Both the position numbers and the translations under genes were made by a program. Positions 34,659-36,168 of a stretch of DNA of 64,000 bases are shown here, one piece after another; position 1 is the first letter of the stretch; each line of letters starts with the position of its first letter. The notes below the pieces were generated by a model. That model was not told the origin of the DNA, made no database searches, and worked only from the letters and a program-made list of their open reading frames with translations. This stretch comes from Escherichia coli (GTDB taxonomy: Bacteria; Pseudomonadota; Gammaproteobacteria; Enterobacterales; Enterobacteriaceae): assembly GCF_003334335.1 (NCBI RefSeq), contig NZ_QOWQ01000006.1, one strand, 5' to 3'.

Positions 34659-35025
34659 GAAAAAATTGGATATCCAAAATAAAATGACAATAATGCGGTG
34701 GATTATATAGGCATAAAAGATAAATGAGATAGTATTTTCATCAGTGTGAAAATGAACATTGATTTAAATAATGAGTTTGAGTTTTTTTGTTTTTATTGTG
34801 AATGATATTTAATTTATGAATATATTAAGAAGAAGCCTTGTCCGGTCGCCTTAAATCGACAAAAGGCATTGTGGCGCTTCTGTGTAGTCTCTGACCTTAT
34901 CGTAATCATTAATAAATACTATTTATTCGTCGTTTGTATTCATTGGGTTGATTATTAAGGTGCCGTTCGTTGCTGTTGCAACCTGTTTGTCACCGTTAAT
35001 TATTTGTTACCCACAGAACAGAACT
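34659..35025. promoter_or_regulatory. strongly AT-rich divergent intergenic region between the acyl-ligase operon and yghO
   Basis: About 370 bp with long A/T tracts; typical of xenogeneic-silencing (H-NS-type) targets and divergent promoters. Confidence 0.4.
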
Positions 35026-36168
35026 ATGGAATGCGATCTGCTGATGATTAAAATTGAAAAAGTAATTAATAAAAATGACCTTAAGGCATTTATCGCTTTT
35101 CCGTCATCACTTTATCCCGACGATCCAAACTGGATACCCCCTTTATTCATTGAACGCAACGAGCATTTGTCTGCGAAAAATCCGGGGACGGACCATATCA
35201 TCTGGCAGGCGTGGGTAGCAAAAAAAGCGGGGCAGATAGTTGGGCGTATTACCGCGCAAATAGATACCTTGCACCGCGAGCGTTACGGCAAAGATACCGG
35301 TCATTTCGGCATGATTGACGCCATTGATGATCCGCAGGTTTTTGCCGCGTTGTTTGGCGCAGCGGAAGCGTGGTTGAAGTCACAAGGTGCAAGTAAGATC
35401 AGCGGTCCTTTCAGCCTGAATATCAATCAGGAAAGCGGATTACTGATTGAAGGTTTTGACACACCACCCTGTGCGATGATGCCACACGGCAAACCGTGGT
35501 ATGCCGCGCATATTGAACAACTGGGTTATCACAAAGGCATTGATTTACTGGCGTGGTGGATGCAGCGAACCGATCTCACTTTCTCTCCGGCGCTAAAAAA
35601 ACTGATGGATCAGGTGCGCAAAAAGGTGACCATTCGCTGCATCAATCGTCAGCGGTTTGCCGAAGAGATGCAGATCCTGCGTGAGATTTTCAACTCTGGC
35701 TGGCAGCACAACTGGGGATTTGTGCCGTTTACCGAACATGAATTCGCGACCATGGGCGATCAACTTAAATATCTGGTGCCGGACGATATGATCTATATCG
35801 CTGAGATTGATTCTGCACCCTGCGCGTTTATTGTCGGCTTGCCGAACATCAACGAGGCGATTGCCGATCTGAACGGATCGCTCTTTCCCTTCGGCTGGGC
35901 AAAATTGCTGTGGCGTTTGAAAGTCAGCGGTGTGCGAACTGCGCGAGTACCGCTGATGGGCGTGCGCGACGAGTATCAGTTCAGCCGCATCGGCCCGGTG
36001 ATTGCGCTGTTATTGATTGAAGCCTTACGCGATCCGTTTGCCCGCCGGAAGATCGATGCGCTGGAGATGTCATGGATCCTCGAAACCAATACAGGCATGA
36101 ATAACATGCTGGAACGCATTGGGGCGGAGCCGTACAAGCGTTACCGATTGTATGAAAAGCAGATTTAA
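35026..36168 (+). CDS. yghO: YghO-family protein, putative N-acyltransferase (acyl-CoA N-acyltransferase fold suspected, not verified)
   Basis: ORF 34948..36168 from a TTG; first ATGs at 35026 and 35044; position divergent from the acyl-ligase/ACP/aminotransferase operon. Confidence 0.6.
   Translation: MECDLLMIKIEKVINKNDLKAFIAFPSSLYPDDPNWIPPLFIERNEHLSAKNPGTDHIIWQAWVAKKAGQIVGRITAQIDTLHRERYGKDTGHFGMIDAIDDPQVFAALFGAAEAWLKSQGASKISGPFSLNINQESGLLIEGFDTPPCAMMPHGKPWYAAHIEQLGYHKGIDLLAWWMQRTDLTFSPALKKLMDQVRKKVTIRCINRQRFAEEMQILREIFNSGWQHNWGFVPFTEHEFATMGDQLKYLVPDDMIYIAEIDSAPCAFIVGLPNINEAIADLNGSLFPFGWAKLLWRLKVSGVRTARVPLMGVRDEYQFSRIGPVIALLLIEALRDPFARRKIDALEMSWILETNTGMNNMLERIGAEPYKRYRLYEKQI

Follow-up and report, generated by a model that had tools for sequence, protein, structure and literature searches.

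An AT-rich, partly conserved spacer between the divergent ceramide genes aasR and yghO of Escherichia coli as a candidate H-NS-bound control region

We analyzed the spacer that separates aasR and yghO, two genes of the Escherichia coli ceramide pathway lying head to head, in a 64,000-nucleotide stretch of an E. coli genome (contig NZ_QOWQ01000006.1; hereafter, the window). With moderate confidence, we propose that this spacer is a divergent control region with a conserved block resembling an operator and two weak promoters, that H-NS and StpA probably coat the DNA in which these elements lie, and that the region holds the ceramide genes off under laboratory conditions. As far as its sequence tells, it is probably an ordinary kind of promoter region, weak, divergent, and bound by H-NS; we infer where the promoters lie, that H-NS occupies and represses the region, and that an activator exists. 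For bacterial membrane lipids, E. coli serves as the reference organism, and sphingolipids do not figure among the major lipids of its membranes. About three-quarters of the complete E. coli genomes contain an apparently intact five-gene ceramide pathway, with enzymes that are active when overexpressed and chromosomal copies that are effectively off in the laboratory. The spacer is where the on/off decision for ceramide must fall, and its interest comes from what it controls, this type of sequence being common in itself.

We found that the segment from position 34659 to position 35043 (385 bp) has a G+C content of 0.325, compared to 0.521 for the whole window and 0.50 to 0.55 for the 300-bp windows flanking the spacer. 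It harbors 17 A/T runs of at least 6 nucleotides and 9 homopolymers (A or T) with a length of at least 4, and a G+C content this low or lower was found in 0.8% of all 385-bp windows of the stretch, as expected from a preliminary description of the region as highly AT-rich relative to the flanking coding DNA. The composition is uneven, with 22% G+C from 34659 to 34830, 49% from 34831 to 34900, and 35% from 34901 to 35025. We then ranked all 26 intergenic regions that span 40 bp or more (median G+C, 0.44), using the gene coordinates assigned by the Prokaryotic Genome Annotation Pipeline (PGAP) to a genome that is 99.6 to 99.9% identical. The aasR-yghO spacer had the fifth lowest G+C content and was the second longest, and four further spacers (pppA/gspS2, yghT/yghS, gss/pitB, and glcA/sslE) were equally or more AT-rich. 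Its AT-richness is marked, yet not unique.

Two transcription units on opposite strands diverge from the spacer, aasR leftward and yghO rightward, both assigned to dihydroceramide synthesis, and this orientation supports the earlier proposal that a divergent control region separates yghO from a lipid operon. The aasR start is most likely the ATG at 34649, since cross-genus tblastn alignments open at residue 1; PGAP places it at 34649 in one genome and at 34616 in others. For yghO, the PGAP start is at 35026, and the start kept across genera is the ATG at 35044 (MIKIEKV...). With genes starting at 34649 and 35044, the limits of 34659 and 35043 first given for the region are approximately correct. 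The PGAP start of yghO (ATGGAATGCGATCTGCTG..., 35026 to 35043) adds six codons found in Escherichia only, and a good Shine-Dalgarno sequence is absent at both 35026 and 35044.

The lipid operon beside the spacer is made up of the ceramide pathway genes of E. coli. The order of the genes is that of ECD_02850 to ECD_02854 in strain BL21, and the products of ECD_02851 to ECD_02854 from BL21(DE3) were assayed or assigned by Padilla-Gomez et al. in 2022 (PMC9386255). In that work, E. coli AasR acylated a dedicated E. coli carrier protein, AcpR, the SPT enzyme favored acyl-AcpR as a substrate in making 3-oxo-sphinganine, and ECD_02852 and yghO (ECD_02850) were given the roles of reductase and N-acyltransferase, respectively, in dihydroceramide synthesis. 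The product of the locus is thus not undescribed, as had been thought: AasR, AcpR, and SPT have been assayed, and the other two genes had been assigned by 2022. As aasR, epi, acpR, and spt overlap or almost touch, they form one operon. The spt product matched the NCBIfam equivalog NF047599 with 596 bits (cutoff, 500; intact copy of strain MRE162), whereas the matches of AcpR and Epi to ACP and SDR families remained below the NCBIfam cutoffs, the epi product being annotated as a NAD-dependent epimerase/dehydratase-family protein. YghO had no Pfam or NCBIfam match, so its assignment derives from PMC9386255 alone. The gene set fits a Rhodobacteria-type ceramide synthesis, in which spt is preceded by acpR and accompanied by aasR, an epimerase/dehydratase-family reductase, and an N-acyltransferase.

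We next considered the expression of the chromosomal copies. In BL21(DE3), neither SPT alone nor AcpR plus AasR alone, supplied on plasmids, gave 3-oxo-sphinganine; the lipids resembled those of the empty-vector control, whose extracts did not make this compound either (PMC9386255). Since single components yielded no product, their chromosomal partners were not effectively expressed under the conditions used (complex medium, 30°C). The spacer of the BL21-derived strain NEBExpress is 100% identical to that of the window, and these data therefore provide indirect published support for the suggestion that the locus is cryptic in the laboratory. Our literature search found no report on the regulation or expression of the E. 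coli ceramide genes.

To dissect the spacer, we aligned eight sequences covering three E. coli phylogroups, E. whittamii, and three other Escherichia lineages (alignment A2; segments in Table 1). The aasR-proximal segment, block A, was 92 to 95% identical to four other Escherichia lineages, compared to 74 to 87% at the third codon positions of aasR. Block A is more conserved than these positions and is therefore under purifying selection. The conservation of so AT-rich a block points to a specific promoter or operator function rather than to mere foreign AT-rich DNA. Block A contains the candidate -10 element of the aasR operon (34707 to 34702), 53 nucleotides (nt) upstream of the aasR ATG and paired with a weak -35 element, ATCTCA (34730 to 34725); transcription is predicted to start at ∼34695, and this candidate promoter had a position weight matrix (PWM) score of 7.4, under the shuffle mean. 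On the other side, the candidate yghO promoter lies in an island conserved across Escherichia, with a predicted start at ∼34833 and hence a leader of ∼200 nt. The center and the yghO-proximal part of the spacer exist as two haplotypes with signs of recombination.

Strong promoters were not evident. A consensus scan of the spacer returned 1 site, compared to 2.8 ± 1.7 in shuffled sequences, and the best score in a weight-matrix scan was 8.7, compared to 11.0 ± 1.6 for the best of the shuffles, so that neither scan revealed a strong sigma-70 promoter on either strand of the spacer. As the matches were fewer and weaker than in shuffled DNA, the promoters would be weak or dependent on an activator. 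A comparison by eye with the consensus sites of CRP, FNR, Fur, PhoB, PhoP, sigma-E, and sigma-54 yielded no convincing match in the spacer. The sequence TAAGAAGAAGCCTT at 34825 to 34838 partially resembles an RcsAB box (TAAGAATATTCCTA), and its TAAGA half is conserved across Escherichia; we mention this resemblance only as a lead. We also noticed that a C at 34676 creates a perfect 12-bp palindrome, TTGGATATCCAA (34666 to 34677), at a distance of 17 nt upstream from the aasR ATG, where TTGGATATCAAA stands in the seven other aligned Escherichia sequences.

We then evaluated the spacer as a target of H-NS. The A+T content of the 385-bp segment is 67.5%, and that of 500 bp centered on the spacer is 67.6%, compared to 48% for the window, and Lang et al. 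(2007) reported a mean of 61.4% A+T at high-confidence H-NS sites. We built a weight matrix from the 11 footprinted sites in Table 1 of that study and counted as a match any sequence scoring at or above the weakest template site. The motif (tCGATAAATT, with a central T-A step) matched the spacer 17 times, compared to 9.5 ± 3.3 times in composition-matched shuffles. The density of matches per 100 bp was 4.3 in the spacer, 3.5 in the sslE promoter, 0.7 to 1.7 in ordinary spacers, and 0.97 window-wide. The sslE promoter, which is also in the window, 11 kb downstream, is bound and repressed by H-NS/StpA in a temperature-dependent manner, according to the summary of Yang et al. (2007) contained in PMC5012682. 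Binding of H-NS to the aasR-yghO spacer is thus likely, its sequence being fully compatible with such binding. Stretches this long and this AT-rich are usually occupied in chromatin immunoprecipitation (ChIP) maps of H-NS. Three other spacers, gss/pitB (21347 to 21637), yghT/yghS (23879 to 24051), and glcA/sslE (45615 to 46098), are equally AT-rich with dense H-NS-type sites; only that of sslE is a documented H-NS/StpA target, and that of yghT/yghS lies in the extended sphingolipid neighborhood described below.

We propose that weak promoters placed back to back share this control region. The leftward one would drive aasR-epi-acpR-spt, for the synthesis of 3-oxo-sphinganine and its subsequent reduction, and the rightward one would produce a transcript with a leader of ∼200 nt for yghO, whose product would N-acylate the sphingoid base to dihydroceramide. 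H-NS, together with StpA, may nucleate in the ∼115 bp between the candidate -10 elements and in the aasR-proximal block, all of which is extremely AT-rich. Combined with the poor -35 elements, H-NS would hold both units nearly off in ordinary culture, and a putative activator or counter-silencer acting on the conserved block would relieve the silencing.

Several observations weigh against this proposal. The authors of PMC9386255 suspected that chromosomal epi and yghO converted supplied 3-oxo-sphinganine onward, so silence may be incomplete. The predicted promoter positions score beneath shuffled controls. The best single H-NS site reached a score of 7.6, compared to 11.6 for proV, and nothing came near a proU-type high-affinity consensus. 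According to our own implementation of the wedge model, with the parameters of Bolshoy et al. (1991), the mean predicted curvature of the spacer does not differ from the window mean, 58% of windows being equally curved, although a local bend of 27 degrees (99th percentile) is predicted at ∼34730, just upstream of the candidate aasR -10 element. The flanking coding DNA is not AT-rich, and the spreading of an H-NS filament would therefore be limited. Higashi et al. (PMC4720273) reported that H-NS-bound DNA diversifies faster; block A is instead strongly conserved. Maps of H-NS obtained by chromatin affinity precipitation or ChIP with sequencing exist for strains SE11 and SE15 (PMC4720273) and CFT073 (PMC9765446), and the literature that we searched, including the supplements of PMC9765446, PMC4720273, and PMC4287617, contained neither H-NS occupancy nor hns-mutant expression of the spacer. 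The K-12 maps are uninformative because K-12 lacks the region. We also looked for a signature of transposon capture and rejected it: the spacer was interrupted in 24/4161 genomes, less often than the control spacers glcB/glcA (128/4544) and glcA/sslE (231/4308), in a measure that is confounded by lineage-specific deletions. Overall, of the suggestion that the promoters are silenced by nucleoid proteins, the likeness to an H-NS target (67.6% A+T, 17 motif matches, and an sslE-like density) held up and a foreign composition of the coding DNA did not; similarly, the curvature and AT-content scan proposed at the outset confirmed the AT-richness and revealed an average overall curvature with the one local peak.

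The main rival is the same divergent promoter region without any meaningful role of H-NS, the AT-richness stemming from promoter, UP-element, and transcription factor sites, and the promoters being weak and in need of an activator or else controlled by a specific repressor. We consider this possible, albeit clearly less probable than the H-NS-bound control region that we favor. The purifying selection on block A, the weakness of the promoter-like matches, the average curvature, the missing near-consensus H-NS site, and the native composition of the coding DNA all agree with it. So does the finding that the spacers of all 42 loci with this gene arrangement (270 to 1095 bp) have a G+C content 7 to 27 points under that of the flanking coding DNA, even in high-GC hosts such as Serratia and Pseudomonas, a pattern suggestive of a constraint that belongs to the module itself. 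Conversely, the A+T content over 500 bp exceeds the mean of high-confidence H-NS ChIP sites, the density of H-NS sites matches that of the proven target sslE in the same window, and AT-rich stretches of such length are, as a rule, occupied by H-NS.

A bolder extension of the H-NS-bound control region is that block A is the operator of a signal-responsive activator or counter-silencer, answering for instance to envelope stress or a host cue, which would induce ceramide synthesis in natural E. coli. We regard this idea as doubtful. If it were true, strains representing about three-quarters of the complete E. coli genomes would make sphingolipids in some niche, and this capacity would have stayed hidden because K-12 has deleted the locus and laboratory media are non-inducing.

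We also weighed a decaying, functionless spacer in a cluster that E. coli is losing, with AT-richness due to mutational bias and relaxed selection. Independent deletions of the cluster by insertion sequences (IS5 in K-12, IS1 in FORC_082), a frameshift of spt in the window, and the lack of reports of sphingolipid made from E. coli's own genes would fit such a decay, which we nonetheless judge very improbable, as the spacer is at least 80% covered in 4137/5426 complete genomes, block A is more conserved than synonymous sites, nearly all genomes have the five reading frames intact, and the arrangement is kept across many genera. Least probable of all is a conserved part that codes for a small protein, a small RNA, or a cis-regulatory RNA such as a riboswitch or leader: block A is conserved and the implied yghO leader is ∼200 to 300 nt here and in other genera, but Rfam, searched with 33500 to 36500 at an E value of ≤1, gave no match in the spacer and none in eight loci of other genera at the gathering score, the putative aasR and yghO leaders folded no better than shuffles (z scores of -0.62 and -0.46, the latter for the yghO-proximal part), the consensus structure of 12 leaders from other genera had 0 pairs, the spacer here held no plausible open reading frame, and no conserved small one was found in it or in the longer spacers of Shimwellia and Serratia.

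Known systems provide useful comparisons. The sslE (yghJ) promoter spacer (484 bp, compared to 376 to 394 bp here) has a similar G+C content (∼30 to 32% in both) and a similar density of Lang-type H-NS sites, and the accessory genes downstream of both spacers are envelope-related and, in K-12, missing or truncated. They differ in that binding and repression by H-NS/StpA have been demonstrated for sslE, whereas the evidence here consists of sequence features; in that the sslE spacer is unidirectional and ours divergent; and in that the 122-bp block under strong purifying selection is a feature of aasR-yghO. Like aasR-yghO, bgl (PMC2646131) and proU have AT-rich regulatory regions with no known laboratory inducer and with IS elements in or beside the region in some strains, but silencing and the upstream and downstream elements have been mapped experimentally in bgl and proU. 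Insertion of an IS activates bgl, whereas the known IS events at aasR-yghO delete the operon, and the near-consensus high-affinity site of the proU type is absent from our spacer. As for the genes, a cluster in Caulobacter crescentus provides the same five functions (spt, CC_1162; acpR, CC_1163; epi/cerR, CC_1164; aasR, CC_1165; and the N-acyltransferase gene, CC_1154), and among the Rhodobacteria compared in PMC9386255, all five genes occurred together only in Caulobacter and E. coli BL21. Unlike in Caulobacter, the N-acyltransferase gene of E. coli and other Enterobacterales is head to head with aasR across an AT-rich spacer.

We then looked into the distribution of the locus. A 901-bp probe across the spacer (34400 to 35300) matched 4554 of the 5426 complete E. 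coli genomes, and the spacer alone matched 4161. Every E. coli phylogroup that we sampled had the locus at the same site, as did other Escherichia species, and spt was annotated as intact in the listed records. The chromosome in the window is not of the K-12 type. K-12 lacks the entire spacer owing to IS5 and an adjoining deletion that runs from inside yghQ to about codon 13 of yghO. In the K-12-type locus (L002, 4952 to 6000), IS5 is joined within the 5' end of yghO and the genes from the truncated yghQ through aasR are deleted; in FORC_082 (L052, 2249 to 3044), the junction with IS1 lies 44 bp upstream of yghO and the deletion spans pitB through aasR; and ET734 has an IS1X2 insertion inside the probed region.

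A scan of one genome per species retrieved 44 loci with YghO relatives, and aasR was head to head with yghO in 42 of them, covering about 40 species of Enterobacterales and Pseudomonas. The genera represented include Citrobacter, Pluralibacter, Pseudocitrobacter, Serratia, Erwinia, Pantoea, Tatumella, Rosenbergiella, Rahnella, Hafnia, Sodalis, Klebsiella indica, and Pseudomonas, and epi, acpR, and spt followed aasR wherever the contig extended far enough. The neighboring genes varied by genus, glcC adjoining the locus in Escherichia only, and occurrence within genera was patchy. This patchy distribution with changing neighbors fits a horizontally moved module. On the other hand, the coding DNA of the ceramide locus has a native-like composition (G+C, 0.50 to 0.55; G+C at third codon positions, 0.53 to 0.57), similar to that of neighboring core genes, and its site is shared among the Escherichia sampled. 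The notion of a horizontally acquired region is weakly right at most, and the locus does not look like a compositionally foreign island.

We also searched for motifs shared between genera. A plus-strand motif, AAAGCATTAAGTGGTAAAAAT, was found ∼300 nt upstream of yghO in ∼25 loci of other genera (including L009, L011, L013, L014, L016 to L021, L023, L029, L033, L039, L040, L042, L045, and L048, and L010 at 104 nt) and resembles an extended -10 element (TGnTAAAAT). Its exact 10-mers were present in 10 to 11 of 30 non-redundant spacers, compared to at most 5 in shuffles, and ∼35 nt further upstream there is another conserved stretch, AAAAGTGAATGG. We found no good copy of AAAGCATTAAGTGGTAAAAAT in Escherichia. 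MAFFT sets the Escherichia island at 34805 to 34830 opposite the AAAGCATTAAGTGGTAAAAAT of the other genera, which is suggestive of a counterpart, alignment in such AT-rich DNA allowing only a weak inference. Another cross-genus motif, AATCTATGGCT, was rejected as a regulatory site, as it corresponds to the start codon context of aasR (ATG GCT).

Table 1. Coordinates of the aasR-yghO spacer, its segments, and the flanking ceramide genes in the window
Feature	Position	Strand	Remarks
Whole divergent spacer, aasR to yghO	34650..35043		G+C 0.32; PGAP genes of near-identical genomes on each side
Block A: candidate aasR promoter, short leader, and putative operator	34650..34771 (122 bp)		∼22% G+C, most AT-rich; nearly invariant in A2
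Perfect TATAAT, candidate -10 of the aasR-epi-acpR-spt operon	34702..34707	-	Read directly from the minus strand; invariant in A2
Second conserved island, candidate yghO promoter	34793..34830	+	TTGTGA or GTGAAT, then TATATT at 34821-34826; best plus-strand PWM score, 8.7
Central island, lineage-variable	34831..34900		G+C 49%; two haplotypes; identity to other Escherichia from 37% to 97%
yghO-proximal part, proposed leader and translation start region	34901..35043	+	35% G+C; moderately variable
aasR, specialized acyl-ACP synthetase (annotated as fatty acyl-AMP ligase)	32928..34649	-	First gene of the operon; NCBIfam NF006624, 878 bits (cutoff, 600)
epi (32017-32931), acpR (31737-31985), and spt (30628-31737, frameshifted here)	30628..32931	-	Remainder of the operon
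yghO, homologue of the Caulobacter CC_1154 N-acyltransferase (bacterial ceramide synthase)	35026..36168	+	PMC9386255

Beyond the five genes, yghT, yghS, yghR, yghQ, a hypothetical gene, a YtfJ-family gene, and paralogues of lptF and lptG accompany the ceramide genes in many Enterobacterales genera, in permuted order (positions 23186 to 30523 of the window and loci L009 to L048). This association points to a sphingolipid module that is larger, with ∼13 genes, and may serve in export or head-group addition. We set aside the idea that yghR, yghS, or yghT encodes a bacterial ceramide kinase, for which no sequence comparison was made; CpgB has a GGDG ATP-binding motif in common with human ceramide kinase. 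In strain MRE162 (L001, 1629 to 2326), an IS1B copy separates the hypothetical gene from the YtfJ-family gene, and yghR has an internal stop codon; the window (∼27774 to 27782) has neither.

Finally, the spt gene of the window contains three copies of the 7-bp unit GGCAGGT (30660 to 30680), where all 4104 matching complete E. coli genomes have two; the best identity of this segment to the complete genomes was 94.2%, which corresponds to one 7-bp gap. With the extra copy comes a frameshift at about codon 358, and 13 unrelated residues replace the last 33 of SPT. Barring a sequencing error, SPT is probably inactive in the strain from which the window derives.

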